NCBI GenBank assembly: GCA_964558465.1
Contig: CAZLEF010000020.1
Location: 19,723 to 83,722 of the forward strand
Length of the DNA: 64,000 bases
Direction: 5' to 3'
From: an uncultured Lewinella sp.
GTDB lineage: Bacteria; Bacteroidota; Bacteroidia; Chitinophagales; Saprospiraceae
A program made the translations under genes and the position numbers. Shown here piece by piece: positions 11,755-60,286 of this stretch (its first letter is position 1; each line of letters starts with the position of its first letter). The notes under the pieces were generated by a model that was given only the letters and a program-made list of their open reading frames with translations, ran no database searches and was not told the DNA's origin.

Positions 11755-11842
11755 GGAGGGATGGCAGAGCGGTTGATTGCACCTGTCTTGAAAACAGGCG
11801 TAGGTGATGAGCCTACCGGGGGTTCGAATCCCTCTCCCTCCG
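11755..11842 (+). tRNA. tRNA-Ser (anticodon UGA)
   Basis: Acceptor GGAGGGA/TCCCTCC, anticodon stem CCTGT/ACAGG with loop CTTGAAA, long variable arm CGTAGGTGATGAGCCTACCG, T-loop GGTTCGAATCC. No CCA is encoded. Confidence 0.9.
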
Positions 11843-11904
11843 CAGAATTACACCTTGGGTAAATCGTCTTTCCTGCTCATTGCAGCGATCTTTCTGTCCT
11901 TCCA

Positions 11905-12159
11905 TTAGTGCCTGATAATAATCCATCCTATCGTACTTCCAACGCCCATATTCCCTAAATCTTTTACGCCTTGTGAGTTATCAAAAATGAAGGTAGTAAT
12001 AATTACTCCCAAAAAAGGACCAAGTCCACCAAGGATATGTAACCAATCTGAATGTTCCCAACCAATCTGAAAATTATGGCTCAATACATTAGGCAGCCAG
12101 ATTGACCAGGAAATTCCAAAGCTGATTAGAATGAAAACTATTATTTTTCGGTTGTTCAT
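11905..12159 (-). pseudogene. CPBP (CAAX protease)-family N-terminal fragment
   Basis: 84 aa: FILISFGISWSIWLP...LGGLGPFLGVIITTFIF resembles the N-terminal half of CPBP proteases, but the EExxxR and H motifs are absent. A 38-aa hydrophobic mini-ORF lies just upstream. Confidence 0.35.
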
Positions 12160-12311
12160 TCTTTACCTGTTAAATTCATAAATCATCCAGCCAAAAGTTG
12201 AAATAAACATCAGCCGAAAAGAATGGCAAAACAAACATTATAACAATCAGAGGAATATATGAGGCTATAAATATTTTTACTTCTAATTTCATTCGTGTTT
12301 GTTTTTATGGC

Positions 12312-12329
12312 ACATAACCGGTGTTATGC
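12312..12329 (-). other. Minimal attC-like site (R''-4nt-R')
   Basis: Gene orientation reads TGA-GCATAAC-ACCG-GTTATGT. GCATAAC directly follows the stop of 12330..12989 and is the exact complement of GTTATGC at the 5' edge of that cassette (~12986-12992). Confidence 0.5.
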
Positions 12330-12971
12330 TCAGTTTTGGATTTTTATGTTAATATCATTCAATTTACGAGGAGTCTCTTCTCCAGGTATTATGGCCATAA
12401 TTTTTTCAAATAGAATCTCGTCATTGATTTGAACAATCTGAAGTTTTCTTGAATTCTCAGGTTCAAATCTTCCGCCAGTATTCTTCAATACCAATATCAC
12501 TTCACCGTTTCTGATAATTTTTATTTCATAGGACTTAACCTCGTGATTACCTGACATATCAAATCCTGAAATTCTTGCGACAACACCAGACTGTGCTAAA
12601 AACTCACCTAATGAAATCGTTCCGGAGGTTTTGCGGGCGAATTCAGCCGGCTGATCGGGCCATCGTCTAACGATAATTCTCCGTTTTTCAATGAGTACGG
12701 TGTCATTATTTGTGGTATGGTAGATGAAGAAGTGACTTTCGCCAACTTTCTGTGGGATGTAACTATATCTGCAATCAGTATCTCTGAGTGTAATACTTCC
12801 ATTGTCTGTACTAATGTAAAGGTATTGGCATGCAACTCCTTCGACCACAATAGTTAATGAATTATCAAGACCAGGCCAAGCTGTCGGATAATTTAATTCA
12901 ATTGCTACGTTTTGACCTTGCAGTCTGATGAAAAAGCAGAAAACCAGTATGGCAATTACAAGGTTTTTCAT
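12330..12971 (-). CDS. Secreted hypothetical protein (possibly GldM C-terminal-like)
   Basis: ORF 12330..12989. The probable start is MKNLVIAILVFCFFIRLQGQ (signal peptide). The family assignment is a weak impression only. Confidence 0.45.
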   Translation of the reverse strand: MKNLVIAILVFCFFIRLQGQNVAIELNYPTAWPGLDNSLTIVVEGVACQYLYISTDNGSITLRDTDCRYSYIPQKVGESHFFIYHTTNNDTVLIEKRRIIVRRWPDQPAEFARKTSGTISLGEFLAQSGVVARISGFDMSGNHEVKSYEIKIIRNGEVILVLKNTGGRFEPENSRKLQIVQINDEILFEKIMAIIPGEETPRKLNDINIKIQN

Positions 12972-12986
12972 TGGCATTCCATTGAG

Positions 12987-13215
12987 CATAACGGTTTGCA
13001 GCTTGCCGATGTGGCGGAATTTTAGCTGTAATTCCTAAGGTTGATCAACTGTCCCACAATAAAAAGCAATGTCACTATTAACATTACTTTGTCTTGAAAG
13101 TCAACCGTGTAGTTGGGTGTCATTTGCCATAGCTGTTCGGTTGGCTTGCTGCCGTGCCGCCGTGCATTGGCTTTGCGGGCTGGCTGTTCGGCGGCATGGA
13201 CAGTAAACCGTTGTC
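12987..13215 (-). other. Composite attC-like junction (one E-type palindrome plus remnants of a second site)
   Basis: Gene orientation reads TAA-ATTCACC-GGACAAC-GGTT-TACTGTCCATGCCGCCG...CGGCGGCACGGCAGCA, then AGCCAACCGAAC, then about 120 nt, then CAAACC-GTTATGC. The central CCGCCG...GCTTTGCGGGCTGGCTGTT...CGGCGG block is homologous to sites at 17.8, 19.3 and 25.0 kb. Confidence 0.45.
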
Positions 13216-13223
13216 CGGTGAAT

Positions 13224-14291
13224 TTATTGTTTTATGCGAGTAAGTATTTCTTTACCCGAATCAAAATATTCCGAAATAATATTTTCATACACTATGTCAC
13301 CATTTTCTCCATTTGTAAAAACAATTATCCCTCTTTTTTCCTGTGGCAAAAGAATGATTATTGTGTTTTGCCCTCGGTTTCTTCCAGTATGTGTCAAGGC
13401 ATATCCTCCTTTGGATAAATTTCTTGTCACATTCCACCCTAACCCAAACTCTTTACCATTTTTTAAAACGGCCTGTGTCTTAATCATCTCTAATTGAACA
13501 TCCCCAGACAGGTAATTTCCTTCTAAGATTGCAACTCCAAATCTCCCGTAATCTTTGAGTGTGGAAAGCACCAAATTCGAAGCATTTGCATCATACCATT
13601 TTTCTTTTTCGTATTGAGAACCGTCAGCACGATACCGCTCTGCATAGCGAGTAGTATCCATATTTTTATCCCAGTAAAAGTGAATGTCTTTCATGTCAAG
13701 AGGGCGAAATAAAATAGAATCTACTAATTTTTCTATAGGAATTTGGAATTTACGCTCCAATGCTTTACGAAGGTATTCAAAGCCTTCACCTGAGTATTTC
13801 CATTGAGAGCCGGGCTCAAATGCGAAGGACAATTTTCCATTAGGCTCATTCCCTCTCCAATTAGGCAAGCCTGATTGATGGCAAAGCACATTCCGTGTGG
13901 TTAGTTTTTTATTAAAGGCATCGTTTGCAACGTCAGGATCAGTCCAATAATTACAGAGGGGTTCATCGAGTTGCCATTGTCCGCTGCTGACCAACTTTAA
14001 AGTAGTCGTAGATATTAATGGTTTGGTCAAGGAAGCCAAGTTAAAAAGCGTATTTAAAGGTGCAGGCGAATGATATTCGATATTGCCAAAAATTTTGACT
14101 TGCCGGATTTTGAAATTTTCAATGATACACACCCCGACGGTAGGCACGTTTTCATTTTTCATCCAAGTCAAAATTGGTTCGCTTTTTAAGATTTGTGTGT
14201 GCTTTGGCGAGCACGAATATACCATAAACGCTAATAAGCATATCTGCCAATTTGCAACAGCACACACAAGTTTTATTGATTTTCCTTTCAT
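13224..14291 (-). CDS. Serine hydrolase, beta-lactamase/transpeptidase-like (class C-type fold)
   Basis: 355 aa with a signal peptide, an SxxK motif in FNLASLTKPLIS, and YSGEGFEYL downstream. Confidence 0.8.
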   Translation of the reverse strand: MKGKSIKLVCAVANWQICLLAFMVYSCSPKHTQILKSEPILTWMKNENVPTVGVCIIENFKIRQVKIFGNIEYHSPAPLNTLFNLASLTKPLISTTTLKLVSSGQWQLDEPLCNYWTDPDVANDAFNKKLTTRNVLCHQSGLPNWRGNEPNGKLSFAFEPGSQWKYSGEGFEYLRKALERKFQIPIEKLVDSILFRPLDMKDIHFYWDKNMDTTRYAERYRADGSQYEKEKWYDANASNLVLSTLKDYGRFGVAILEGNYLSGDVQLEMIKTQAVLKNGKEFGLGWNVTRNLSKGGYALTHTGRNRGQNTIIILLPQEKRGIIVFTNGENGDIVYENIISEYFDSGKEILTRIKQ

Positions 14292-14366
14292 TTTTTTAAA
14301 TGTTTAACTCAAAAATGAAAGACACATGTGGCAAATAGAGGTTGCTTTTTTCATTTTTTTAATTTC

Positions 14367-14497
14367 ATCGAACGGTTTGAATATGGGGCGTTTGGCATTT
14401 AAAAACACCAACCTGTCAATCCGCTATATATTTTATTAATTGTTACCATCTTCACATTTAGCACTATCTGCCAAATGCACTATATTTTTTGTTGTGT
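14367..14497 (-). other. attC-like site (131 nt)
   Basis: Gene orientation reads ACACAAC-AAAA-AATATAGTGCATTTGGCA...TGCCAAACGCCCCATATT-CAAACC-GTTCGAT. It starts 8 nt after the stop of 14502..15473. Confidence 0.55.
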
Positions 14498-14501
14498 GTC
14501 G

Positions 14502-15455
14502 TTATTTTATTAATTCTAAGAACCAATTGACCAACTCCTTCTCATCAACAATATTCCAAGTATGAGGGTGTCTGCTCCCATCATTCTGGTAACCTTTATC
14601 TTGAGTGATTATCAATTCCACCTTCTGGTTATCTCGAATTTTAAGTTCATTTATCAAGGCAGCTAAATCAATTGCATTCATGGAGTAAAAGTCCTTTCTT
14701 CTTGTTTCTATCCACCAGGTTACATCTGGTTCAGTATAGCATCTAATGGCTATATTCTTCAATAGATTAAGATTTGAACCTCCATTTGCGCTATAGCAAT
14801 ATGGTGAATAATCTATATATGCTTGTAATGTGTCTGTTGGAGTTCCACCAAGATTTCTCTCAAGATAGCCTGAGACCCACGTGCCCTCGTTTGCTGTAAT
14901 TGGACTGAAGTTAAGCTCCTTCGCTTTTACCATTTCTTTGTGAAAGCGAACCATGTCCAACGGAGAATCACATATGGCAATTGCTTTGGGAACCAATTTA
15001 TGTTTTGACTCAGTACTTTGACCAAACATTGCCAGTTTTATAGCACGTGTTCCTTCTAAAGACATCCCACAATAGAGTAGGTTACTATCGGGTATGTTAT
15101 AAGTTATAAGCACTTCATAGATGTAATTTTCAATTTCATGAACTTTACTATTCTCAAAAAAGAATTCAAGTCTGTTTTCCGTTGTTGCATAAAGTACCGC
15201 AAGTTGTTTCGAAAGGGCATAATCTATGATAAAATCAGCGTTTACTGTATCTCTTCTTGCATGAGTGAAGACAATCAATCCTTTTATTTTTTCGATTTTT
15301 GGCAGCCAGAGCGTGTATCCTCTGTCAACTTTTGGGATGCTAATCCCTTCAGTTAAAAGGATATCGCCTTCTACATGAACTTTCTTGTCAATTACTCTTT
15401 GAGCAAACAAGTTTGACATGCAGAAGATACAGAGTGTTAAAATTGCTGCTTTCAT
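14502..15455 (-). CDS. Secreted hypothetical protein, possible alpha/beta-hydrolase fold
   Basis: ORF 14502..15473 (GTG). The likely start is MKAAILTLCIFCMSNLFAQ. There is a GMSLEG nucleophile-elbow-like segment, but no firm family match by eye. Confidence 0.45.
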   Translation of the reverse strand: MKAAILTLCIFCMSNLFAQRVIDKKVHVEGDILLTEGISIPKVDRGYTLWLPKIEKIKGLIVFTHARRDTVNADFIIDYALSKQLAVLYATTENRLEFFFENSKVHEIENYIYEVLITYNIPDSNLLYCGMSLEGTRAIKLAMFGQSTESKHKLVPKAIAICDSPLDMVRFHKEMVKAKELNFSPITANEGTWVSGYLERNLGGTPTDTLQAYIDYSPYCYSANGGSNLNLLKNIAIRCYTEPDVTWWIETRRKDFYSMNAIDLAALINELKIRDNQKVELIITQDKGYQNDGSRHPHTWNIVDEKELVNWFLELIK

Positions 15456-15474
15456 CCTGTTTTTTAATGACACA

Positions 15475-15625
15475 TCACTCCTTAATGTCTACTGGTATCT
15501 TCTTAGTCGCTTCGCCAATAATTTCTAAGCTGCGAACTATCGCCCGTTTTAGCACTTCGTTATCAATCAAGGCATCTTTGGTCATATCTGGCGATATGCT
15601 GTTATTGATAAATTCACAGTAACTA
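15475..15625 (-). pseudogene. HepT/DUF86 (HEPN toxin) internal fragment
   Basis: The translation ...EFINNSISPDMTKDALIDNEVLKRAIVRSLEIIGEATKKIPVDIKE* carries the RxxxxLEIIGEA signature of DUF86. The N-terminus is cut by MITE copy A, and the C-terminal RxxxxH half is missing. Confidence 0.5.
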
Positions 15626-16104
15626 CCCAGTCCCCCAAAGCTATAAAAAATTGACGGAATAAGGTTAACCTGGCAGGCATAAAATCCAGGGCCTTATGCC
15701 AGGAATTTCCAGCCCATACGCCGGGATGAGAAAGACACGCCTGATCCGCAAGATTGAGGCGCTGGAAAGGTATTGCCGGAGTCTGGAAAAAGCCAACCAG
15801 GCAGGTATTTCGGGAGGTGAAGTTTTGTACATGGACAAGGAGAAAGCCAGGTTGATCGGGGAATTACTGAAGCGGGATCGGCTGGTAGCTTCCCTTTCCA
15901 AATTGGTCAGAAAATAAATGTATTCAATGCACTCAAAAATATTTTTGAAGGAATTATCCCGCCAGTCCAGTATCCGAAATTGGAATAAATAAAAACACTC
16001 CAAAATTATCCGCAAAATATTATGGTTTATTTTTGAAGCCTCCGGAAATCATCTCCGTGAGATTAGGCCCGCTTGTTTTGTTAACTTTTGGACTGGGTAA
16101 TTAC
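15619..16104 (+). mobile_element. MITE-like element, copy A (486 bp) with ~15-20-bp terminal inverted repeats
   Basis: The left end is GTAACTACCCAGTCC and the reverse complement of the right end is GTAATTACCCAGTCC. It is about 90% identical to copy B outside a divergent central segment and carries a coiled-coil ORF remnant (15696..15917). Confidence 0.65.
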
Positions 16105-16139
16105 GATTCTTTTAATCAAAAAATGGACTTTTGATTCTC

Positions 16140-16766
16140 TCATTTGTCGCCAAACTTGACCAGCCCCCAAACTCCTAACAGCCATAGTCCCAAAGCAAGC
16201 GGCCAGAATATTTCCAGATTATAATACAAGGCTTGGGCAGTTATAAGAGATGGGATAGATAATATAAAAGCCAATCCGACCCACCAGGGTGCTATTTTTT
16301 TTCTCATTATCGCTACACCTGCAATGATCCAGGCGAAGAAAAAGCACCAATTATACAGGAAGAGTCCCGACAACCAAATTAAAGTAGCTTCCGATTCTAA
16401 TCCATCATTTATCGCCTTCGGGTCCATCCCTGAAGCCACAAAGCCTGCGGATAAAGCTCGAAAACCAGAAATAAAGGCGATAAACGCTGTACCCAAAACA
16501 CCCAATACCGTTACCACGATTCCTGTGTTAGGAGACCGCTCTGCGATTCGTTGTCCCATGAAAATGAAAGTGGCCACAAAAAAAGGAACACCAATCGTCA
16601 TAATCAGGCCTTCGTATGAACTGACCCAGTAAAGTTCACCCGGAAGCGTTCCAATTCCAAATGCCCTTACTACCGATGCAATAAAAAAGCATAATGGCGC
16701 AACTAACGCCAGCATGGGCAATCGCTTCCGAAAAGTTCTCACCCATTTGTCATTCTGATTTTCCAT
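16140..16766 (-). CDS. Integral membrane protein (about 6 TM), unknown function
   Basis: ORF 16140..16931. The upstream third is encoded by the attC-like palindrome, so the start MENQNDKWVRTFRK at 16766 is more likely. Confidence 0.55.
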   Translation of the reverse strand: MENQNDKWVRTFRKRLPMLALVAPLCFFIASVVRAFGIGTLPGELYWVSSYEGLIMTIGVPFFVATFIFMGQRIAERSPNTGIVVTVLGVLGTAFIAFISGFRALSAGFVASGMDPKAINDGLESEATLIWLSGLFLYNWCFFFAWIIAGVAIMRKKIAPWWVGLAFILSIPSLITAQALYYNLEIFWPLALGLWLLGVWGLVKFGDK

Positions 16767-16811
16767 TTTGTTTTGTTTTAAATTAATTATTCCTGTTTTC
16801 TTCTTATTTAC

Positions 16812-16941
16812 CGCTAACGTTTGTGTTTCTGCAGTGGTGCCTTCCCGAAGCCGCGTCCTGTCCCACGACACCAAGCGTTGAGCGAAGATAAAACTAAAAA
16901 CCAACTCGTCACGGCACCATTGCAGAAACATTTTGTTGTGA
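16812..16941 (-). other. attC-like site (~130 nt)
   Basis: Gene orientation reads TCACAAC-AAAA-TGTTTCTGCAATGGTGCC-(~71 nt)-GGCACCACTGCAGAAACA-CAAAC-GTTAGCG, with an 18-bp stem carrying one mismatch. R'' matches GTTGTGC at 17797-17803 in 6 of 7 positions. Confidence 0.6.
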
Positions 16942-16948
16942 GTAGTTT

Positions 16949-17770
16949 TTACTTGTAGTATTCATATTCAAAAAAATCCGGAATAAATCCACGGACACTT
17001 TTTAGTAGTCCGTTAGGGTAATAGAAGTATGTCAATTTTGCATTCCACGTCCTATCATTCATAAACACCTGATTGATGTCAGAGCTTATGATTTGTCCCC
17101 TTGAATTAAAACTGTTGGCACATACAGTATTGCTGTTAAAGTGTTGAAGGTCTTTGTAGTCGGAATACTGAACTTTGGATGTGTCTTGTCCGACAACCAT
17201 TAGCCCGTCTTTAAGCTTGGGCTCCCAAGTATATCCATACCATCGTTTTGTATAAAAGTCGTTTTCATACTCTGTTGTCATGTGATAAACTATAAGAGTG
17301 TCTCTTCGTTGGGTTTTTATTGATTTAAAGGGCTCGTAATAATAGAGAGTCTCATAATTTGGGGAATCGGGGAATTTCTCTTGGAAGTCCTGAGACTTTG
17401 TCAACCTGCCCAATGAGTCATAGAAGAAAAGTGTGTAGTCAACTCCGAAAGAACCGTCAAAATAAGCAGTAGAGTCAATGATTTGAATCAATCTCATGTT
17501 TGAGTCATATTTGTAATGCTTTGTCCCTTCTATTCTTTTATTTTTTCGAGTTTTCCCATTGTATGATGCGCTGTATCTAATAGAGCGAATTTTACGTCCA
17601 TCTTTGTCCAAGTAAGTTATCTCTGCTAAATCTCTTGGTGAGTTCTCAAATCGAGTGATTTTTCTCACACTCCTATTTTTATAAATGCTGTCTGGTTGGG
17701 AGCTATTTTCGCTTTGTCCGTAAACACTACTTGATAAAGTGAAACATATTAGTATTAAAACTTTATTCAT
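16949..17770 (-). CDS. Secreted protein with YD/RHS-like repeats
   Basis: ORF 16949..17815 (GTG). The likely start is MNKVLILICFTLSSSVYGQ. Repeats are of the form HYKYDSNMRLIQI and FFYDSLGRLTKS (YDxxGRL-like). Confidence 0.5.
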   Translation of the reverse strand: MNKVLILICFTLSSSVYGQSENSSQPDSIYKNRSVRKITRFENSPRDLAEITYLDKDGRKIRSIRYSASYNGKTRKNKRIEGTKHYKYDSNMRLIQIIDSTAYFDGSFGVDYTLFFYDSLGRLTKSQDFQEKFPDSPNYETLYYYEPFKSIKTQRRDTLIVYHMTTEYENDFYTKRWYGYTWEPKLKDGLMVVGQDTSKVQYSDYKDLQHFNSNTVCANSFNSRGQIISSDINQVFMNDRTWNAKLTYFYYPNGLLKSVRGFIPDFFEYEYYK

Positions 17771-17796
17771 CGGTCTGTCCTGTCCGTAAAAATTGC

Positions 17797-17884
17797 GCAC
17801 AACGGTTGCACTCACGCATACCGCCGCCTGCGTTGGCTTTGCGGTTTAGCTTTAGCGGCGGTTGGTGTGAGTGTGGTGTTGGCT
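17797..17884 (-). other. attC-like site (88 nt)
   Basis: Gene orientation reads AGCCAAC-ACCA-CACTCAC-ACCA-ACCGCCGC-(27 nt)-GCGGCGGT-ATGC-GTGAGTG-CAACC-GTTGTGC. It overlaps the last 24 codons of the TIR ORF. R'' is the exact complement of GTTGGCT at 19289-19295. Confidence 0.7.
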
Positions 17885-19269
17885 GCCTTCTTTATTTCTC
17901 TGTGAGCCATAAACAGAATTATCCCCCAAAATAAATGATGAGTTGATGATGAAATCTGTTGTAAGGTCATGCCATTTCCAGCAAATATACTTAAAAAGTC
18001 ATAAACGCCAAACTTTGCATTTGAAATATTTATTATTACAAAAGTCAAAGTCAATATCGCAAGCAATCTTTGCTTTTTTAATATTACAATCAAAATTATT
18101 GAAATGCCTAAAAATATAAATTGAGAAAAATTCCATAACATTTCGTTGATTATCCTTTGCTTGTCAATATCAATATTATCGTATCCAAATTTCCATATAA
18201 ATTCCGAAAACAACGATAAGATAATTTGAAGCATACAAAGTAATTTCCCAAAAAAATTTCCGTATAGGCTAAACAAAACAGAAAAACATAACATTTCAAT
18301 TAACATCGGTAAAGTAATGACTAATGGGTCATAAAACAAAGTAATTATACTGTTATTTTCATTTATATTATCAGCCCAGTATCCGTAATAGACAAAACCA
18401 AGAAACACTAAAATACAACTTATACACCCTATCAATAATAAATTACTTTTACCTTCTAAACTAGTAAAATTAAGTCTTTCCATTGCTCTTGAAAATACAC
18501 CATGCTTTTCAGTAAGATTGTTTTTATGAAAATTTTGGTTAGTGAAGCCTAAAAAAATAAGGAGTTGCTCTTTATCTTCAGCAATTTGAATCCTTTTTAA
18601 TAAATAAGGAATACTTTCAAAACTAAATTCATTACCCTTCAAAATAAATATTTTTCTTTCACCTTTACTGTTAATGTAAGTTTCATTATAAAAAGTCTCA
18701 TATTCTGATTTTACCCATTCTGACTCCATTGAGTTTTTTGATACAATCAACAGGAAATGTGTACTATTCTTTAACGCATTGCTTATATTAGTAAAATAGG
18801 AGTTACCAATATTACTTTTTAAAGACTCATGTGAATAAAAAACCTTGTAACCATGTTGCGTCAGGTGTTTCCATATTTCATCAGCAAAGTGCGTATCAAA
18901 CGACGAATAGCATAAGAAAATATCATATACTTTTTCACCCACTTCTGCAATTAACGTTGTTTTGTTTATTTTTTCGCTTACTGTTTTCTCAATTAAATTG
19001 TTATCCGGTATCGCTTCTATCAGTTGAAGCAATGAATGCCTTATCCTATTTTTTTCAATTGATATACCTCCTTCGCTTATTATTCCAGCATTAATTTGTT
19101 TCTTTAAATCTTTGTGCCTTCCTGAAATTAAAATTAAATTATTATATATATCATTTAAGTCAATGGTGATGCTTTCATCATTATATAGTTTTAATGAAGT
19201 AATCATTTTCTCTATTAACAAATCTATGCTATCTTCTTGGATTAGTATCTTTAAATTTTTCTTATCCAT
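17812..19269 (-). CDS. TIR-domain protein with N-terminal helical adaptor-like module and C-terminal multi-TM region
   Basis: 485 aa. The TIR core is YDIFLCYSSFDTHFADEIWKHLTQHGYKVFYSHESL...LLIVSKNSMESEWVKSEYE. Residues ~275-460 form about 5-6 hydrophobic helices. Confidence 0.8.
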   Translation of the reverse strand: MDKKNLKILIQEDSIDLLIEKMITSLKLYNDESITIDLNDIYNNLILISGRHKDLKKQINAGIISEGGISIEKNRIRHSLLQLIEAIPDNNLIEKTVSEKINKTTLIAEVGEKVYDIFLCYSSFDTHFADEIWKHLTQHGYKVFYSHESLKSNIGNSYFTNISNALKNSTHFLLIVSKNSMESEWVKSEYETFYNETYINSKGERKIFILKGNEFSFESIPYLLKRIQIAEDKEQLLIFLGFTNQNFHKNNLTEKHGVFSRAMERLNFTSLEGKSNLLLIGCISCILVFLGFVYYGYWADNINENNSIITLFYDPLVITLPMLIEMLCFSVLFSLYGNFFGKLLCMLQIILSLFSEFIWKFGYDNIDIDKQRIINEMLWNFSQFIFLGISIILIVILKKQRLLAILTLTFVIINISNAKFGVYDFLSIFAGNGMTLQQISSSTHHLFWGIILFMAHREIKKAANTTLTPTAAKAKPQSQRRRRYA

Positions 19270-19288
19270 ATTTTGTTCTTTTGGTTGC

Positions 19289-19379
19289 AGCCAACGGCTG
19301 CACTCCTGTCAGCCCGCCGCCTGCGTTGGCTTTGTGCGGCTGATTTTGGCGGTGGGTTGGCAGGAGTGCTTTGTTAGCG
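19289..19379 (-). other. attC-like site (91 nt)
   Basis: Gene orientation reads CGCTAAC-AAAG-CACTCCTGCCAACCCACCGCC-(26 nt)-GGCGGCGGGCTGACAGGAGTG-CAGCC-GTTGGCT. R'' is the exact complement of GTTAGCG at 20581-20587. Confidence 0.7.
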
Positions 19380-19390
19380 GATTGTTCAAT

Positions 19391-20548
19391 TCATTCATAC
19401 ACTTGGATGTTTCGGAATTCAACATTATCGCTTCCCGTCCCAGTATGACGCCGATTGATTGTCATTTGCAATTTTGAAATGACCTTTACAGGGATACCGA
19501 CTTGCCCGAATTCAATATTAATATCAACAGGGTATCCTGCAACAATAGTTTTTTTTGTGCCGTAGTAAGCACCTCCACCAGTTTTCCCCCCTATTTCGAT
19601 ACTGATAGGATTAAATTCTTTACCAGAATCCCCGTCAAGAACTCTTGTTTTATCCTTTCCAAAAACACTTAATTCTACATCCATATCCTCGCTTTGAACT
19701 TGACAATTACATCGAATAATTTGCTAAAATTGACTACATTTTTTAAGTTTAAAAGTTAATTCTCCAACTTTTGCTGTCTCTCTTGGGGTTAATTTAGGTG
19801 CTTCTGATCTGGCTTTGCTTACAGTTTCTTTTTGACCTATTCCATTGCCTATAAGGATGTTCCTAAATTCTACCTTATTACTTCCAGTTCCTGTATGGGC
19901 TTGATTAATCGTCATTTCCAGTTTTGAAATATTTTCAACTGGAAAAGTCACGTCTCCAAATTCAATTAATATATCTACTGGGTATCCTTCGACAATAGTT
20001 TTTTTCGTTCCATAGTATGCACCACCTCCGGTTTTTCCACCAATTTTGATACTGATAGGATTGAATTCTTTACCAGAATTTCCATCTATTATTCTCGTTT
20101 TATCCTTCCCGAAAATGCTTAAATCCACATCCCTATCTTCACTCTTTACTTTACAGTGGCAAGAAATGAATTGCTCGGTTTGATTACAACCTACAAGGTT
20201 AAAGGTTAAATTACCGCTTTTTGCCGTACTGGAATTAATTTGTTGAGGTGTTTCGGGTTGAGGTTTAACTATCTCCGGTTCTGGGTAGATTTTTTCTTCA
20301 CTTGAAACTGGCAAGTCTTTTCTTGGTTTTGAATTGGCTTTGGGTTCAGTCGAATTGCCTTCTTCTAATGACGATTGTGTTTGCGAGCCAGTATCTAAAG
20401 AGACACCTCGTGTTTCTTTTTCAGTCATTTGCTGTTTCTCTTGGGCTTCTTGGTATTTTTGATATTTTAAAACTAGAATCCCACCAACAACTGTGATGAA
20501 AAGCCCAATAATTATCTCTTTCAAATAATTTTTCCGTTCAGTTGACAT
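19391..20548 (-). pseudogene. Membrane-anchored protein with two ~95-aa tandem domains, interrupted by one in-frame TAG
   Basis: ORFs 19724..20548 and 19391..19684 are in the same frame. The junction reads ...ELTFKLKKCSQF*QIIRCNCQVQSEDMDVELSVFGKDKTR, which parallels LTFNLVGCNQTEQFISCHCKVKSEDRDVDLSIFGKDKTR in repeat 1. Confidence 0.6.
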
Positions 20549-20580
20549 TTTGTTTTATTTTGTTTGTCAATTTTATTTAC

Positions 20581-20646
20581 CGCTAACGGTGGCACACACG
20601 ATGGAGCGAGCGAATGCGAGCTATGGAAGTGTGTGTTTTGTTCGCT
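20581..20646 (-). other. attC-like site (66 nt)
   Basis: Gene orientation reads AGCGAAC-AAAA-CACACAC-(29 nt)-GTGTGTG-CCACC-GTTAGCG. R'' is the exact complement of GTTCGCT at 21436-21442. Confidence 0.7.
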
Positions 20647-20666
20647 TCCGGTTTCTTTTTTATTCT

Positions 20667-21413
20667 TTACATCCCTCCACATAACGTCATTCTTGTCATA
20701 ATGTGGATACAATAAAAATAGTTTGCTACTTTATATAATGCATCTGAAACATCTTCTAAGACTTTTTCATCTTCTTGAAAAGCGTCCGTTATTTTATCAT
20801 TTTCATCAACCTTCACAAATACTTTTTGCCCAAATTTCCTTTTTTTATCCCCGCTTTGGATTTTCTCCATAAATTTTGTCAATGTATCAGCATCAAATCT
20901 TTTCATAGTGAATTTATGCTTGTCCAAGGAAGTGTCTTTTGTCACAGGATATCTAAAAAAAGAACTATCCCTATCATACTTACAAATGATTGGAAATAGA
21001 TTTGAGATTTTTTTTACCTCTCGCCAATCTCCTTTCGGGGCAATTTTTTCTAATTTTTTTTTATTTTGTTTCAATAACTGGTTAAGCCAATAATCGTAAA
21101 GTTCATCAATCCAATGACAAGTATATAATGGTCTCCAAGCTCCGCCTGTAAAAATTTTGGGGTTATCACTTTCAAATGAATCTTGATCATAGTTAATTTC
21201 TAACTTTTTATGAAAAATCACTATTAGTGACTTCAGATATAATTCAATAGAATGCCTAAATAGAAAATTTTCGGGCATCTCCCTTTGTTGAATGACATCA
21301 TAATGTTCATGATGATTATTTCTTAAATGTTCAGCACTTTTAAAATAGGAATCACCCGTAATCCCAAATCCGAAATCGGGATGTAGTTCAATCCCGGACA
21401 TTGTGTACATCAT
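20667..21413 (-). CDS. Hypothetical alpha-helical protein (weak HEPN-like impression only)
   Basis: 248 aa with an N-terminal helix NFLFRHSIELYLKSLIVIF and a later SSFFRYPVTK. I could not find a canonical Rx4-6H motif. Confidence 0.4.
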   Translation of the reverse strand: MMYTMSGIELHPDFGFGITGDSYFKSAEHLRNNHHEHYDVIQQREMPENFLFRHSIELYLKSLIVIFHKKLEINYDQDSFESDNPKIFTGGAWRPLYTCHWIDELYDYWLNQLLKQNKKKLEKIAPKGDWREVKKISNLFPIICKYDRDSSFFRYPVTKDTSLDKHKFTMKRFDADTLTKFMEKIQSGDKKRKFGQKVFVKVDENDKITDAFQEDEKVLEDVSDALYKVANYFYCIHIMTRMTLCGGM

Positions 21414-21435
21414 ATTATTTCTTTTTTCTAATGGA

Positions 21436-21500
21436 AGCGAACGGGGGCATGGACGACATGGCGACGTTTAGGAGCCATGTGTGACCATGCAATGTTGTCA
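21436..21500 (-). other. attC-like site (65 nt)
   Basis: Gene orientation reads TGACAAC-ATTG-CATGG-TCACA-CATGGC-(11 nt)-GCCATG-TCGT-CCATG-CCCCC-GTTCGCT. The TGA of R'' is the ATPase stop codon. Confidence 0.7.
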
Positions 21501-22673
21501 GATTTTTCCTTGCATGTTTAATAGGACATACGGTTTCATCATTGGATTATAAAATCTGTATCTAATGTTCTTACCATTTCCTAGTTTTTCAAGGAGTAAT
21601 CCCCTTTCTTCATGGCATAATTTACCTAAATTATGGGTAATATTTTCACGAATTGAGTTTTTTCCAGTAATCCGATTAAATTCTTTTAGTATCTCACTTG
21701 TCGTAAAAGAATCAAACTCATCTGTTTTACACATTGCACATGCCTGTACAACAGGTTTCCATTGAGAATTAATAGAAGATGATTGAATTGCTTTTCTATA
21801 GGATTCTCGTAGTTGTTCGCTGGCATTCTCTATTGCTTGTCTAATGGCAGAATCTAATTCAGAATTACCAACTTTGGTATAATTACGGTCAAGTGCCCTT
21901 TGAATTGAGTATTTACATAACAAATGTGTATAATGAGGAAATCCAGAAGAAAATTTTACTATTTTACCAGTTATTGATTTTATTATTTCCATCTCTAAAT
22001 CAGCAAACCCTTTCTCGACAATCTCTGTAAGTTCAACATCTGACATTCTTGGCATCTTTATTTGCATTAAGCATCTTTCTAATGATTGATGATTTCCAAT
22101 CAAATTGCTTACATTTTCAGCGATACCAACAATCATTATTTTTATATTCCTAGAATTGTCCGACAAAGATTTTATCAAATCAGCGAACTGAACCCTAGTA
22201 GGTTGATTTTTTATATTATCAAATTCGTCAAAAATGAATAAAAATTTGTTTGAAGGGAATTGTCGCAAACAATTATATATATCGTAAGGCATTAGATTTT
22301 CAATGCCTGCTATATATTGGTTTAGCGAAATTAATTTTTGTCTGGTTTGTGGATTAAATCCAATTCCCTGGGTAGTTGTCGTGAATTGAACTTCACTTAA
22401 TGCCCGTTCCCATAAGTTCTTAAAATTATCAGAACTTCCACAGGTTACTTTTACGCTATAAAGATTTGTAATCTTTTTTTGAGTTATATTTGCCATTGAT
22501 GTTTTTCCTACTCCCCTTTCGCCAAATAAAATAGCATGTTGCCCCTCTTCATTCATAACTTGAACAATCCTTTTTAACTGCTCAATTCTACCCCGAAAGA
22601 AGTTTTCCTCCTTAATCGGAGACATTGGTGAGAATACTGTACTTAGTTTAAGTTTACGTTCTTCAATGTTCAT
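21498..22673 (-). CDS. AAA+ ATPase, ORC/Cdc6-like with C-terminal winged-helix-like region
   Basis: 391 aa with Walker A GERGVGKTS and Walker B LFIFDEFD, then a helical lid and a C-terminal RYRFYNPMMKPYV segment. Confidence 0.8.
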   Translation of the reverse strand: MNIEERKLKLSTVFSPMSPIKEENFFRGRIEQLKRIVQVMNEEGQHAILFGERGVGKTSMANITQKKITNLYSVKVTCGSSDNFKNLWERALSEVQFTTTTQGIGFNPQTRQKLISLNQYIAGIENLMPYDIYNCLRQFPSNKFLFIFDEFDNIKNQPTRVQFADLIKSLSDNSRNIKIMIVGIAENVSNLIGNHQSLERCLMQIKMPRMSDVELTEIVEKGFADLEMEIIKSITGKIVKFSSGFPHYTHLLCKYSIQRALDRNYTKVGNSELDSAIRQAIENASEQLRESYRKAIQSSSINSQWKPVVQACAMCKTDEFDSFTTSEILKEFNRITGKNSIRENITHNLGKLCHEERGLLLEKLGNGKNIRYRFYNPMMKPYVLLNMQGKI

Positions 22674-22700
22674 TTTTCATTAATTTAAATTTCTGACAAT

Positions 22701-23285
22701 TTATAGCCGTGCATACGCCGCCCCCACCAACACTCCGCCTTACCCGAAGCAGTTAAGCGGGTGGCGGATGAACGAAGTTGAACTATGCCGCTTTACCCGA
22801 AGCAATTATGGGCATCGCATCCACTCCCCTGGTCTAAGACCGTGAAAAACCCAACTGCAAAATACGTCCCTTGCAGCGGAAAAGCAAGGATGGAGGCTTG
22901 AACCATAGAAAAAAATGCCATTTATCAACGATTTATAGGTGAATTGGATGCGTTCGGCAAAAAACCTCCAGCCGGGTATGTTCCCCGGAAATAAAACTGG
23001 ACAATTATCAGGTTTGGAGCTGTCACTAATCACGAAAAGTGTACCAGCAATTTGCACGGAATGCGCATGCGGCGGGCCCGCTGTCTCCATAGGAGTCCTT
23101 TGGACCGGGAGCAAGGCCCTTCTGGCTGGAAATGGATTGACCAAACCGGGGAACCGCCAGGAGCATGGCCGTTCCGTCGATGACTTTTAGCCTGGAGACC
23201 TTGCCCGGATCTTTTTCCACCTTTTGGCGTCAACCAGCCCGCAAGCGGGCGGGTAAAAAGGTGGACCAAAACCGGCGGCTTACGC
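22701..23285 (-). other. GC-rich ORF-less element U, copy 1 (attI-like site or structured RNA candidate)
   Basis: It is homologous to 26590-~27100, near-identical over the first 76 nt and recognisable for about 400 nt. There is no conserved reading frame, and indels break every frame. In gene orientation it ends ...GCACGGCTATAA directly before (A)TTGTCA, the 5' edge of the ATPase cassette. Confidence 0.45.
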
Positions 23286-23405
23286 ATCTTCGGCTAAAAC
23301 AGGAGTTATTTCTTTCGAATCACACGCTAATTTATGTGATAACTTATCTGCAATAAATTTGCAATTTCCAGTTTTTGAGTAAAACAACAATAAGTAAGTT
23401 TTCAT
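23280..23405 (-). pseudogene. Flavodoxin-like N-terminal fragment (41 codons)
   Basis: MKTYLLLFYSKTGNCKFIADKLSHKLACDSKEITPVLAEDA* has the flavodoxin YSxTGNT-like start. The frame ends where element U copy 1 begins. Confidence 0.4.
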
Positions 23406-23465
23406 TTGTTTTAAATTTTTATTACGTTTCTAAATATTATAATTGTGTCGTCACGTTAGCTGTTG

Positions 23466-24395
23466 TTATTCTATTTCAAAATGTTTCATTACTCGTAAAA
23501 CTCTCAATGTATTCCATCTACTTGGTTTGCCTGCTTTCTCCATGTTGACGTGTACCTGACCGGGATGAGCAGCTTGCATATTCCAAGATCCTTCATTGTT
23601 TCGTTTTGACTTCAGTACATCAATCGTTGCTTTCATTCTGTCGTCCCATTCAATTCCGGCATATTGAAAAAAATCCATAGCTCGAAGAATATCATATTTC
23701 CATCTGCATGGATAAGTCAACTTCAAAAAGTCTTTATTAATAATTTGACCTGTTCGGTCAGACAAAAATAGTTGATGTAACAAAATAAATTCAATTGAAC
23801 TTTTTTGAGCGCTGAGAATTGCGTTCTTTCTATAGGTGTATCCGGCTTTTTGAAATTCTGTAAACCCTTCAAGTACGGATATTGTCGAGTGTAAGGAACT
23901 GTGTTTAGCTCCACTTCTTGTTGTCCTGCAGTTAAAACCTCCATCTGGCATTATCTCATTTAATAAACAGTCAATAATGGAATGCATCTTTTTTTCAGAT
24001 GTTTTGAAATACGAAGCGTAATTCAAAAACATTCCATTTACACAAACATCACTATGCTGTGATGTAGATGGCCCCAATTGAATTCCTCCATCATCTGCTT
24101 TGTTGTTTTGTAAAATCATCTCTATAGTTTCTTGTACAATCTCATTGCTTGAAGGGAGATTTAAATTGCGAAGGTCAAGTAAAGTGTAATGAGTGGAAAT
24201 CCATTTTGGTTGATAAAATCTATCGCCCCAATGACCGTCTGATTTTCGTTTGGATAAGTATTCATGACCCCAGCCTTCATTCGATATTCTGGCCTGAAGT
24301 TTCTTTTTTTCAACTCCCAACAAATCACGCCACACTTGGTATTGTATGGACACATCTCCTTCCAGCAGCCAATCGATGATTTGTTGATTGCTCAT
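23466..24395 (-). CDS. Prenyltransferase/terpene-cyclase-like alpha/alpha-toroid repeat protein (hypothetical)
   Basis: ORF 23466..24419 with likely start MSNQQIIDWLLEG. It has recurrent SDGHWGDR, PDGGFNCR and NEGSWNMQ motifs typical of such repeats. Confidence 0.45.
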   Translation of the reverse strand: MSNQQIIDWLLEGDVSIQYQVWRDLLGVEKKKLQARISNEGWGHEYLSKRKSDGHWGDRFYQPKWISTHYTLLDLRNLNLPSSNEIVQETIEMILQNNKADDGGIQLGPSTSQHSDVCVNGMFLNYASYFKTSEKKMHSIIDCLLNEIMPDGGFNCRTTRSGAKHSSLHSTISVLEGFTEFQKAGYTYRKNAILSAQKSSIEFILLHQLFLSDRTGQIINKDFLKLTYPCRWKYDILRAMDFFQYAGIEWDDRMKATIDVLKSKRNNEGSWNMQAAHPGQVHVNMEKAGKPSRWNTLRVLRVMKHFEIE

Positions 24396-24398
24396 TAC

Positions 24399-24912
24399 TG
24401 TAACTATCCAGTCCCCCAAAGCTATAAAAAATTAGCGGAATAAGGTTAACCTGGCAGGCATAAAATCCAGGGTCTTATGCCAGGAATTTCCAGCCCATAC
24501 GCAGGTATGAGAAAGACTCGCCTGATCCACAAGATCGAGGCGCTGGAAAGGTATTGCCGGAGTCTGGAAAAAGCCAATCAGGTAGGTATTTCGGGAGGTG
24601 AAGTTTTGTACATGGACAAGGAGAAAGCCAGGTTGATCGAGGAATTATTGAAGCGGGATCGGCTGGTAGCCTCCCTTTCCGAACTGGTTCGGCAGTTGCA
24701 AACGGAAAACGAAACCCTTGGGGAGCAACTGGAAGAACTGGTCAAAGCCAAACTGAAGGAATTATCCCCCCAATCCAGTATCCGAAATTGGAATAAATAA
24801 AAATACTCCAAAATTATCTGCAAAATATTATGGTTGATTTTTGAAGCCTCCGGAAATCATATCCGTGGGATAAGGCTGGCTTGTTTTGTTAACTTTTGGA
24901 CTGGGTAATTAC
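24399..24912 (+). mobile_element. MITE-like element, copy B (514 bp)
   Basis: It has the same termini as copy A (GTAACTATCCAGTCC ... GGACTGGGTAATTAC). It contains a 107-aa coiled-coil ORF (24477..24800) that is truncated in copy A. Confidence 0.65.
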
Positions 24913-24976
24913 TAAGGTACTTCTGTATGACATTGATTACTTTTTCTTTTATATTTTTTTATTATTTTTCAGTTTC

Positions 24977-25056
24977 AGCGAACTGTGGGCTTGCCGCCAT
25001 GTGTTGCTTTTGCAGGCTGGCTGTTTAGCGGCATGGACAGCCAGTCGGAGTTCTAC
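24977..25056 (-). other. attC-like site (80 nt, E-type)
   Basis: Gene orientation reads GTAGAAC-TCCG-ACTGGCTGTCCATGCCGC-(29 nt)-GGCGGCAAG-CCCACA-GTTCGCT. R'' is the exact complement of GTTCTAC at 26583-26589. Confidence 0.6.
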
Positions 25057-25106
25057 AGTTTTATTTGTTTTCAATGATTTATGCAAGTAGGGCGCCGGAA
25101 CAGGCA

Positions 25107-26561
25107 CTACAAATACTCATCAATCAACTCAATTAGTGCCATTGTAATCCTTGTTCTTTCTCTACTTGCATCATCATAAGATATTGTATTTGAATTCTCT
25201 TTTGTTCTTAATTCAGAAAATTGTGAATTATAAAGGATTGCCTTATTACGAGCTTCGTTATCCTCTACATCTTTAAAGGATGAAAGCAAGAGTGTCAAAG
25301 ATTTACCTATCTTTCCCTTTGAAATTAAATCTTGAATTTCTTTTTTTGAATGATTTGAGCTTAATGAATTGATATCAGATAATGGTTTGTCATGTACTGT
25401 ATCAATTGAAACATTATTTGAATTAACTACAATTGTGCTATTGCTAATATTTTCAAATTTATTGCCCATAACTGTTTCATTGATTTCAAAGTGAAAAAAA
25501 TCTTTGTATTTAAGTAGAGTTTCTTTTGAAATTTTACCATTCGCAATTTCATGAATTGGAAAATCAATTTTATCAAAATGAGTTATGTGCTCATCAAAAT
25601 CGCCCTCAATGACAAGTTCGCTTGAGCGAGAATATCTAAGAGCATAATCTTCTAACCAATTTACTGCCCTTTTCAATCCGTTATCCTTCCGATCTGGGTT
25701 AAAATAGCAAAAACTCATATTTTGATCTAAAATATTATTTCCTCGATAATACAAAATTACAATGCTTGAATACAAATCTTGATTATTTGAAGGTTTAATG
25801 AATTCTAGATTTTCAATATAAATACAATAGCGAGGGATTTCTTTATTAGATTTAATCAAGGAAAGTTCATTGGGAATAATTTTCAATCTGCCAATTAAGT
25901 TAACAATAAACCCTCCATTTTCTTTTATTTTTGAAATACAATCACGATATAAAGACATTTCAACAATTAGTGGTATTCCCTCATGACTTACACCTGTTGA
26001 AGATGCTCCTAAAATATAACATTCTCTACCATAAATAAATTTATTTGCCAATCTTAATGAACCAATACCTCCTTTTATCATATTCTCTTTGCCCTCTGGT
26101 GTATATTCTATTAACTGTTTTTGGGTATATCCTTCCTCACCAAGAGAATTTAAAATACTTTGAAACTCTTCAGAAGAATTTCGAAGGTTGTAACTTATCT
26201 GAGCATGAATTTTTTTTTCAAAAGCATCTTTATTGTAGAATAATGCTAGCCTTTGTGCATATCGTCTGCTATATATAGATTCATAGGTATAAAATAAGCC
26301 AGGAGATGTTGGTATCCATTCAGTCAAATGAAATTTTTCAAGCCTTATTATTTGCTCATTGTGACATTCATTCTCCAAGATAGATTTCCAAAAATCAAAA
26401 TTACTATTGAATATCTTGTCTGGGTTGTTTCTATTTTGAGTTTTGTTTTCAATATGAGAATACATATAAACATTTAGTTGATTTTTAATAAAATCAACTA
26501 AGTCACTTCTTACTATGTAAGCTTGATGACCTTTATCTATTAGAATATCATCTGCATTCAT
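25107..26561 (-). CDS. Large hypothetical protein with C-terminal helical adaptor-like module shared with the TIR protein
   Basis: ORF 25107..26690. The first 43 codons are encoded by element U, so the start MNADDILIDKG at 26561 is more likely. The C-terminus AILYNSQFSELRTKENSNTISYDDASRERTRITMALIELIDEY aligns with LILISGRHKDLKKQINAGIISEGGISIEKNRIRHSLLQLIEAI of the TIR protein. Confidence 0.55.
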   Translation of the reverse strand: MNADDILIDKGHQAYIVRSDLVDFIKNQLNVYMYSHIENKTQNRNNPDKIFNSNFDFWKSILENECHNEQIIRLEKFHLTEWIPTSPGLFYTYESIYSRRYAQRLALFYNKDAFEKKIHAQISYNLRNSSEEFQSILNSLGEEGYTQKQLIEYTPEGKENMIKGGIGSLRLANKFIYGRECYILGASSTGVSHEGIPLIVEMSLYRDCISKIKENGGFIVNLIGRLKIIPNELSLIKSNKEIPRYCIYIENLEFIKPSNNQDLYSSIVILYYRGNNILDQNMSFCYFNPDRKDNGLKRAVNWLEDYALRYSRSSELVIEGDFDEHITHFDKIDFPIHEIANGKISKETLLKYKDFFHFEINETVMGNKFENISNSTIVVNSNNVSIDTVHDKPLSDINSLSSNHSKKEIQDLISKGKIGKSLTLLLSSFKDVEDNEARNKAILYNSQFSELRTKENSNTISYDDASRERTRITMALIELIDEYL

Positions 26562-26589
26562 CTTTTTTATATTTTTCGTTTCGTAGAAC

Positions 26590-27100
26590 TTATAGCCGTG
26601 CATACGCCGCCCCCAACAACACTCCGCCTTACCCGAAGCAGTTAAGCGGGTGGCGGATGAACGAACCCCGCTACAAGGGGGCCGATGCAATTATGGGCAT
26701 CGCATCCAACTCCTTGATCTAAAGGCATAAAAACTAAGGTGCAAAATACACTTGTTGCGGCTGAAAAGCAAGCTTTTGGACTCAAACGTATGAGAAAGAA
26801 CGTCATCAATCAATGATTTATCCATGAATGGGTTGCGTCAGGCAAAAACATCTCCTGCCGGGCATATTCCCCGGAATTAAAAATACAACATGATAAGGCT
26901 TGAGGCAATGGATGAGCATGCGGCGGGGCCCGTTGCCTTGGTTCAACGGGGTTTTAACCAGAAATAGAAAGGCGAATCCGGATAACTGGCTGGAGCGTCC
27001 AGACGCCACCCCGGCGGCCCCGGCTTCATCACACCCACAAATAAAATTACCATTGTTGCCCAAAACCGGACATACCCTGTCCAATATCGGACAGAAGACG
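26590..27100 (-). other. GC-rich ORF-less element U, copy 2, at the array/core junction
   Basis: In gene orientation it ends ...GCACGGCTATAA directly before GTTCTAC, the 5' edge of cassette 25107..26561. The outer boundary toward 27.1 kb is fuzzy. Confidence 0.45.
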
Positions 27101-27204
27101 GTATCCGGAATTTAATTAAGTTATTGATAATTAATATATTACAACAAAGGCATGTTTTTTGATCGCTTCTTTCAAAAGACCGTTAACCAAATCCTCTTTC
27201 AACC

Positions 27205-59231: not shown

Positions 59232-59392
59232 ATATAAAGGTCTCCTTGTTCATGGAAGTAATTTTTATCACCTTCCAGCCAACAAAGTAAACGGAAAACC
59301 TGATTTTTATCAAACCCTATTGACAAATACACACCTTTTTTGTACATTTAGTGCGATTACAGGATTTGGATTCAAAAGCGGCGATTTGTATG

Positions 59393-60286
59393 TCATCAGT
59401 TGAGCGATTTATTCAATATCTTCAATTTGAGAAACGAAGTTCTTCGCATACAGTCGACGCATACCGGACGGACCTGGGGCAGTTTCAAAGTTTCATCTCC
59501 GCCACCTACCAATTGGAAGCCCTCGAAGAAGTCAGCCATTTTTACATCCGTTCCTGGGTGGTTTCCATGCTGGATGCAGGTTTGAGCGCGGCCTCCGTCC
59601 GCCGCAAATTATCTACCCTCAAGTCCTTTTTCCGGTTCCTTCTGCAGCGGAAAATCATCAGCAAAAACCCCATGCGGCAGGTTTCCATTCCCAAAACAGG
59701 CAAACGGCTCCCCGTTACCACCCTGGCAAAGGATATGGAACAACTGTTGGATCATACCGGGTTTTCCGATGATTATAACGGCTGGCGCGACCGGCTGGTC
59801 CTCGAAATGTTATACGGCCTGGGTTTGCGCCGGTCGGAATTGCTGCAACTCCGGCTCGCCGATGTGGACTGGCAAAGCCGGCTGGTCAAAATTACGGGTA
59901 AAGGGAATAAACAACGCCTTGTGCCGTTCGGTCCTTCCCTGCACCGCTTGCTTGAAAATTATATGGAAGTCAGAAAACAATACTTTCCGGTCGCCGGAAA
60001 TCCTTGCGTTTTTTTGACAGAAAAAGGTGAACCCATGTACCCCAAACTGGTTTATAATATTGTAAAACGATATTTGTTGCTTATACCTGCATTGGATAAA
60101 AGGAGTCCGCATGTACTGCGGCATTCTTTTGCTACGCATTTATCCGAAAACGGGGCAGATTTGAACGCCATCAAAGGTTTGCTCGGCCATGCCAACCTGG
60201 CGGCTACCCAGGTCTATACCCACAATTCGATTGAAAAACTGAAGAAAGTATACCGGCAGGCACACCCCAAAGCCGGAGAGGGCTAA
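59393..60286 (+). CDS. Tyrosine site-specific recombinase, XerC/XerD family
   Basis: ORF 59351..60286 with likely start MSSVERFIQYLQFEKRSSSHTVDAY. It has RDRLVLEMLYGLGLRRSEL, HVLRHSFATHL and LLGHANLAATQVYTH (R-H-R-Y residues). Confidence 0.85.
   Translation, partial: SSVERFIQYLQFEKRSSSHTVDAYRTDLGQFQSFISATYQLEALEEVSHFYIRSWVVSMLDAGLSAASVRRKLSTLKSFFRFLLQRKIISKNPMRQVSIPKTGKRLPVTTLAKDMEQLLDHTGFSDDYNGWRDRLVLEMLYGLGLRRSELLQLRLADVDWQSRLVKITGKGNKQRLVPFGPSLHRLLENYMEVRKQYFPVAGNPCVFLTEKGEPMYPKLVYNIVKRYLLLIPALDKRSPHVLRHSFATHLSENGADLNAIKGLLGHANLAATQVYTHNSIEKLKKVYRQAHPKAGEG

Follow-up and report, generated by a model that had tools for sequence, protein, structure and literature searches.

The two GC-rich segments U1 (22701-~23296) and U2 (26590-~27055) are, in all probability, 3′-terminal remnants of an IS91-family insertion sequence present in two copies, of the subgroup that carries a tyrosine recombinase (TR) gene, occupying cassette slots in an integron-type array. 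Since the 64-kb window (the whole stretch of DNA analysed) holds no intact copy, this identity, read from sequence comparison, depends on relatives found elsewhere. It removes from the window a candidate new attI site or new RNA: the two GC-rich blocks would be IS relics that mark former mobile-element sites in an array with defence-type genes and no intI. The IS identification is in itself ordinary. What is of interest is that this IS91 subgroup is built like a cassette: the relatives form a lineage that has integron core sites for ends and was met with in cassette slots only, which the literature consulted touches on just in passing.

The cassette array and the two U segments

Both GC-rich U segments are held in an AT-rich stretch at 11.9-27.1 kb, within a window of ~53% GC, and tRNA-Ser(tga) (11755-11843) adjoins this island. 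An attC site consists of an R″ box (RYYYAAC) and an R′ box (GTTRRRY) around a bulged L″/L′ palindrome with an asymmetric spacer, 57-141 nt in total. Minus-strand intergenic hairpins of the island follow the integron rule that the first 7 nt of a cassette are the complement of its own R″: a cassette starting with GTTCGCT at 21442 has AGCGAAC at 20646, another starting with GTTAGCG at 20587 has CGCTAAC at 19379 (both minus strand), and the R′ box GTTGGCT (19295) closes the final attC of this chain. The two cassettes that directly follow U on the same strand do likewise. Directly after U2, the EAD11 cassette opens with GTTCTAC (26589-26583) and has R″ GTAGAAC (25056-25050); directly after U1, the nSTAND ATPase cassette opens with ATTGTCA (22700-22694) and has R″ TGACAAC (21500-21494), complementary at 6/7 positions. 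The sequence-only reading had placed the 3′ ends of U at cassette 5′ boundaries, matched the adjoining 6-7-mers with those R″ boxes and regarded the island as an integron-type array, all of which is borne out, the U terminus lying at the recombination crossover beside GTT.

The minus strand of 11900-27100 is an integron-type cassette array without integron integrase, a CALIN. A search of the 64-kb window for an integron integrase or its remnant returned none, the sole tyrosine recombinase gene being Xer-like (59351-60286). Among the array cassettes, all on the minus strand, are those for three conflict-system proteins, a TIR+EAD11 protein (17812-19269), an nSTAND1 ATPase (21498-22673) and an EAD11 protein (25107-26561); a beta-lactamase-fold protein (13224-14291, minus strand) is also encoded there. 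The alternative of an island integrated at tRNA-Ser, with U as a duplicated att region, found no support, the island being a cassette chain.

Two further repeats were seen in the array. A second two-copy repeat of ~490 nt (15616-16104 and 24397-24912; 94% identity) is GC-richer than its surroundings, and one of its copies contains a 107-aa ORF (24477-24800, plus strand, opposite to the cassettes) without a Pfam match; this repeat could represent one more cassette, mobile or duplicated. The attC hairpins at 13155-13203 and 24992-25040 share 84% identity across 11.8 kb, and a locus in a Lewinellaceae MAG (L012:6828-6915) resembles them (80% over 90 nt), which suggests a lineage-specific attC type.

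Alignment shows U1 and U2 to be real homologues, GC-rich, on the minus strand and each abutting a cassette start, as had been proposed. In cassette orientation their final 76 nt differ by one mismatch (99% identity), and this block starts immediately after the R″ position. For the ~250 nt before it identity falls to ~75%, with frame-breaking indels, and DNA farther upstream is barely alignable. Simple decay does not explain such a step from 99% to ~75% (the spacer), which counts against the IS-relic explanation. Both copies end in GGCGGCGTATGCACGGCTATAA, a 22-mer present in the window solely at 22701-22722 and 26590-26611, where none is expected by chance, and an nhmmer profile built on the 3′ regions of five relatives matches U1 and U2 alone within the window. 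No ORF is common to the two copies, and the internal 85- and 112-aa ORFs of U1 have no Pfam matches.

The outer limits of both copies had to be moved. U1, formerly ended at ~23285, extends to ~23296; a 41-aa N-terminal fragment of a flavodoxin-like ORF (23280-23405, minus strand) does run into the relic, as had been described, the flavodoxin assignment itself being weak (PF12641, E = 0.064). U2 had been carried to ~27100 and ends at ~27055. The GC-rich hairpin at 27060-27102 lies outside it, upstream of an FtsX-like (FtsX/MacB-type) permease gene, and is core DNA: it is kept in another genome (L023) upstream of a 78%-identical permease orthologue, the alignment with which sets the U2/core boundary, and U2 and the cassette array start immediately beside it. 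A mini-element reading, in which this hairpin would be a terIS or common 5′ boundary of U, was rejected on the same L023 conservation and on the differing truncation points of U1 and U2.

Relatives of U and the probable IS91-family identity

A scan of metagenomes for the exact terminal 19-mer pattern gave two true homologues, L002 and L003. A scan of genomes detected the U lineage in a Lewinellaceae MAG, where a single contig has two copies (L012 and L016), and in a Lewinella MAG with one copy (L019); over the terminal 54-127 nt these share 81-87% identity with U. Contig JACJYC010000013.1 is, judging by its sequence, from a genome different from that of the window and carries the same element lineage. 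The other matches to the 18-19-mer pattern (L001, L004, L005, L011, L013-L015, L017, L018 and L020) were set aside as chance, L001 by direct reading, L004 and L005 for a blastn match of only ~20 nt, and the other seven by their unrelated organisms. Searching with the recombinase protein added a sister lineage (L026-L030), whose transposase is 60-70% identical to that of L002. L006 and L022, truncated beside core genes, gave no information on the ends.

In L002, ~330 nt of U-like DNA, collinear with U1 and U2, lie directly 3′ of an ORF matching Y2_Tnp (PF04986, E = 4e-31). L016 is an intact element, with genes for a 283-aa Xer/IntI-like recombinase and a 413-aa IS91-family transposase followed by a ~330-nt tail; its transposase scores 455 bits against the NCBIfam IS91-family model NF033538 (transpos_IS91; cutoff 125). 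The transposase of the relatives, L006/L007 included, has Zn_Tnp_IS91 and Y2_Tnp domains. A TR gene stands 5′ of the transposase gene in L006, L007/L008, L016 and L026-L030, and the terminus lies ~330 nt past the tnpA stop in L002, L016, L021 and L026-L030. In every relative with upstream sequence, U comes after the transposase gene and never after intI. The sister element is a 2493-nt unit that is 100% identical in four contexts and was therefore recently mobile; the transposase gene is intact in these copies.

Against this background U1 (22701-23296, minus strand; nhmmer 23015-22704, E = 3.8e-25), collinear with L002, divides into three parts. Its attC-like terminus on the oriIS side (22701-22783) has R″ GTTCAAC at 22783-22777, an imperfect L″/L′ palindrome and the spacer CTATAA, and folds as single-stranded DNA. 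A non-coding spacer (22784-23015), conserved in alignment and nhmmer, runs from the former tnpA stop to this attC-like end. The remainder (23016-23296) is made up of decayed, frameshifted C-terminal codons of the transposase: with tblastn the transposase tails score better here than in 100/100 shuffles. U2 (26590-27055, minus strand; nhmmer 26933-26589, E = 2.2e-21) is a second relic, which borders on core DNA and whose truncation lies deeper in the transposase tail. Its terminus (26590-26665), the 76-nt block 99% identical to U1, is attC-like without R″; a U2-specific hairpin region, CCCCGCTACAAGGGGG (26666-26695), stands in for the R″-bearing segment, and the decayed tail (26934-27055) keeps QRAPPHAHP. 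The earlier suggestion that different hairpins replace each other in the two copies thus holds in a narrower form, since what CCCCGCTACAAGGGGG replaces is the segment that holds GTTCAAC in U1 and in the relatives.

The coding origin of the upstream parts is visible at the protein level, where no shuffle (0/100) reaches the observed tblastn score, and a three-frame reading of the upstream part of U1 shows LAxxxxxxG(F/Y)xPP, PACG and (A/G)PPHAH motifs collinear with L002. Decayed coding sequence had been named at the outset as an outcome that would overturn the idea of a recombination site; for the upstream part of U that is what was found, namely the 3′ end of an IS91-family transposase gene. 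Both U copies are immobile relics: the TR gene is gone, and of the transposase gene no more than the last ~40-95 codons persist, in decayed form. Some points do speak against the explanation by IS91 relics. The relatives that support it are 81-86% identical over the terminal ~125 nt only and more diverged elsewhere. The GTTCAAC box retained in U1 is gone from U2, and U1 itself deviates from the attC plan by a degenerate helix (GGTGGGGGCGG) and by A, not G, before TT.

The possibility raised first, that U is an attI-type primary site left from a platform that lost its intI, now appears very improbable. An attI is found once per array, next to intI where the array begins. U2 does sit at the array head beside core DNA with a cassette starting at its end, and the direct repeat in U1, GCTTCGGGTAA(A/G)GCGG, could represent integrase-binding sites; its two occurrences (22803 and 22750) are 53 nt apart and not 51 as given before. 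This repeat of 17 nt, whose first U1 copy (22803-22788) is inside the spacer, flanks R″-L″ and is conserved across element lineages, as is the ~230-nt spacer. What weighs against an attI is that the homologues follow a transposase gene and not intI, that they can occur twice in an array and in mid-array positions, and that the window has no integron-integrase remnant. The next cassette starts right after U because the element fills a cassette slot and ends like an attC. Likewise, the correct observation that unrelated cassettes follow the same position of the same element is a consequence of array structure and needs no attI.

Little probability is also left for U as a structured non-coding RNA, or as a module, be it 5′ leader or promoter, that serves conflict-system operons (nSTAND ATPase, EAD11). 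The segments are GC-rich within an AT-rich array, a UUCG-type loop lies in the repeat, both copies precede promoterless cassettes, and outward promoters near oriIS are described for ISCR1 (PMC6218425). Yet the sole supported helix is the attC-like one, and the homologues are tied to transposase genes with unrelated cassettes downstream. Rfam 15, applied at gathering thresholds and down to E <= 10, returned the tRNA-Ser and two chance matches, with no family matching U. Minimum free energy folding of U gave z-scores of -1.74 and +0.22 and was not significant on either strand, and a sigma-70-type scan of U1 showed no excess of promoters. Of the proposed unusual attC carried on a structured RNA, the attC-like character of the last ~85-90 nt remains and the RNA does not. 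A blastn comparison of U with plasmids gave no match. Two further candidates were rejected: an ORF-less group IIC-attC intron, for want of a domain V/VI signal, and an IS1111-type MITE or bridge RNA; in both cases the homologues follow a transposase gene.

Ends, insertion points and proposed mobility of intact elements

Intact elements of ~2.5 kb read, from left to right, GTTGAACTAAACCGCAAGCGG as left end, TR gene, transposase gene, ~230-nt non-coding spacer and a ~90-nt imperfect palindrome. GTTGAAC opens all left ends that multi-copy alignment defines (L026-L030, the more distant L007/L008, and L012/L016 of the U lineage). The left end reads GTTG-AACTAAACCGCAAGCGG and is distinct from the right end, which in the sister copies is ...GGCGTATGCAAGGCTAATA followed by GTT and aligns as a homologue of the U terminus; the flanks have no repeats other than GTT. 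In intact elements a GTTCAAC box, which U1 keeps as well, lies ~85-100 nt before the right end (the sister lineage and L007; GTCCAAC in L016), and GTTGAAC is its complement, exactly in L026-L030 and L007 and with one mismatch in L016. The left GTTGAAC fits GTTRRRY and the internal GTTCAAC fits RYYYAAC. Joining the ends gives a sequence that on either strand can adopt a hairpin of 90-107 nt, in which the core sites pair, the L″/L′ helix is bulged and the spacer asymmetric. The terminal attC-like section by itself (~85-90 nt) comprises R″, the L″/L′ helix, a 6-nt spacer and the GTT of the next unit, and the helix is conserved between lineages with 2 compensatory pairs. GTTGAAC and GTTCAAC are absent from two proteobacterial plasmid elements of the IS91+recombinase type (L031 and L032), which are single copies whose ends are undefinable. 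One sub-lineage (L021:1300-1345 and L026:12325-12365) shows a 14-nt tandem duplication at the terminus that includes GTT (CAAGGCAAATAGTT x2), which looks like a footprint of recombination or transposition at the crossover.

All insertions seen are at integron recombination points, and intact elements stand within arrays, with ordinary attC sites on both sides. In L027, L028, L007, L012 and L016, the element is preceded by a resident attC that is present through its L′ arm and a 5-nt spacer, with GTTGAAC replacing R′. In L026 and L029 it follows an attI-like region, where a gene for a 472-aa IntI/XerA-like integrase ends and two GGCACCnnGGGTGC palindromic motifs come next. In this integrase (L026:8362-10000, L029:9-564; lineages 75% identical) the N-terminus is extended by ~190 aa and the IntI-specific insertion is missing; it shares 40% identity with the recombinase of the element itself. 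Its gene runs in the direction of the cassettes, and the locus may represent an integron platform of an unconventional type or belong to some larger element.

Downstream, the cassette after the terminus differs at each copy (VIT1-like, DUF6602, MerT and others). The 7-mer after the terminus in L003 and L016, GTTGCAG, is the complement of the cassette's own R″ CTGCAAC; in L012 the post-terminus GTTCTCT pairs with the R″ AGAGAAC in the attC that precedes the L016 copy; and in L019 the cassette start GTTGATG is complementary to AATCAAC at 6/7 positions. The VIT1-like cassette of L019 ends in that AATCAAC without an attC hairpin (L019:4718-4745), and ~20 nt farther on lies the stop of a GC-rich, convergent core gene: here the attC is truncated or the cassette boundary atypical. 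Across 11 right-hand junctions TT is invariant, the preceding base is G in 10/11 (A at U1), and the fourth base is A in four, C in three and G in four. Arrays with two copies of the element are the one in this window, that of L012/L016 on a single contig and that of L027 (1-127 and 4715-7207), with one or few cassettes between the copies in the latter two; the L012 copy is interrupted by a ~2.3-kb insertion with a 504-aa ORF (L012:3816-5330).

How such an element might move can be envisaged in three steps. The HUH enzyme would cut one strand at the terminus, setting free a circle of single-stranded DNA; the circle's joined ends would fold into a complete attC; and the element's own IntI-like recombinase, or a host integron integrase, would recombine this folded attC into an attC or attI site at G\|TT. 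We prefer such two-enzyme mobility, by an HUH enzyme plus a tyrosine recombinase, as an inferred model, because the junctions share only TT, the ends are exact core sites and the recombinase belongs to the IntI subgroup; its own recombinase, the HUH enzyme and a host integrase are the candidate movers. Its strongest form, that the recombinase-carrying IS91 subgroup is a self-mobilising integron cassette with a bona fide attC at the oriIS-terIS junction, an HUH-generated circle of the single-stranded kind required for integron-type recombination, and integration at attC or attI by its own recombinase, one of the closest known relatives of IntI, is put forward only tentatively.

A serious rival accepts the same IS91 relics and treats them as those of an ordinary rolling-circle IS, in which Y2 alone inserts the single-stranded circle on the 5′ side of GTT in a folded attC, the palindrome is oriIS and the recombinase is accessory; this too we hold to be a possibility short of an even chance. 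Much is in its favour: in classical IS91 a palindromic oriIS, with subterminal palindromes, abuts a GTTC/CTTG target, terIS opens with a related tetranucleotide plus palindrome, no target duplication is made and the intermediate is a bottom-strand ssDNA circle (PMC13181058). With terminal palindromes and a GTTC target in classical IS91 as well, the attC-likeness could be an IS91 trait, which also counts against our own explanation. Moreover, the transposase is intact in the 100%-identical active copies, abortive rolling-circle events would account for truncated copies in which the oriIS end is kept, and IS1111-attC elements and group IIC-attC introns likewise target attC. Yet the fourth base at the 11 junctions (A4/C3/G4) is unlike the IS91 tetranucleotide, and the left 7-mer, a GTTRRRY exactly complementary to RYYYAAC at attC distance, is something a nick-site model does not need. 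Further, L027 and L029 have the DNA beyond the right (oriIS) end in common and different upstream DNA, the opposite of what one-ended transposition would give, a pattern that recombination between IS copies could also produce.

Should the mechanism be the one that the anatomy suggests, the result would bear on how cassette arrays come to be invaded and rearranged, perhaps even founded, and on the origin of integron integrases. A self-mobilising cassette, if true, would link rolling-circle transposons to the origin of integrons and would provide a vehicle for seeding or remodelling intI-less arrays such as this one.

Comparison with known systems

In the literature, coverage of which was incomplete, neither the attC-like build of the terminus nor its complementarity to the left end turned up, leaving novelty unproven. 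An IS91 subgroup with a recombinase gene is already known: for IS91 members with an upstream recombinase, such as ISShvi3, the recombinases fall in an 'Integron-like' subgroup together with IntI (bioRxiv 10.1101/542381). The elements described here agree with the ISShvi3 type in gene content and order and in a recombinase without the IntI-specific insertion, and differ from it in coming from Bacteroidota lineages, represented in this window by relics only.

With the IS91 family at large (IS91, IS801 and IS1294, rolling-circle elements with a Y2 HUH enzyme) they share the transposase family with its Zn_Tnp_IS91 and Y2_Tnp domains, functionally different ends, a palindromic end 3′ of tnpA abutting a GTT-containing target, a left end made of a GTT tetranucleotide followed by a palindrome, and the lack of target duplication. 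The target of IS1294b is GTCC. Unlike IS91, the element has an additional tyrosine recombinase gene, its observed specificity is for GTT only, and its GTTGAAC and GTTCAAC are exact inverse core sites whose joining forms an attC.

ISCR elements (ISCR1; ISCR20/28 with sul4) resemble it in their IS91-related HUH transposases, their linkage with integrons and the oriIS remnants beside captured genes, and attC sites have been reported at the ISCR28 end (PMC12772301). They belong, however, to another transposase clade (the ISCR model gives only 21 bits), lack a recombinase gene and are not bounded as cassettes.

Insertion in fixed orientation inside array attC sites is shared with the IS1111-attC group and group IIC-attC introns. 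Their enzymes are of unrelated kinds (a DEDD transposase in the one, a ribozyme with a reverse transcriptase in the other), and they interrupt attC without recreating complete core sites at both junctions. There is a parallel in architecture with integron cassettes themselves, whose RYYYAAC/GTTRRRY core sites, bulged L″/L′ helix and length of ~90 nt are reproduced, along with a first 7 nt complementary to the element's own R″ and an occurrence both in arrays and at an attI-like junction. From ordinary cassettes the element is set apart by its cargo, a 2.4-kb transposase-plus-recombinase module, by the conserved 230-nt spacer before the site, and by a left 7-mer that is invariant across lineages where that of each cassette is its own.
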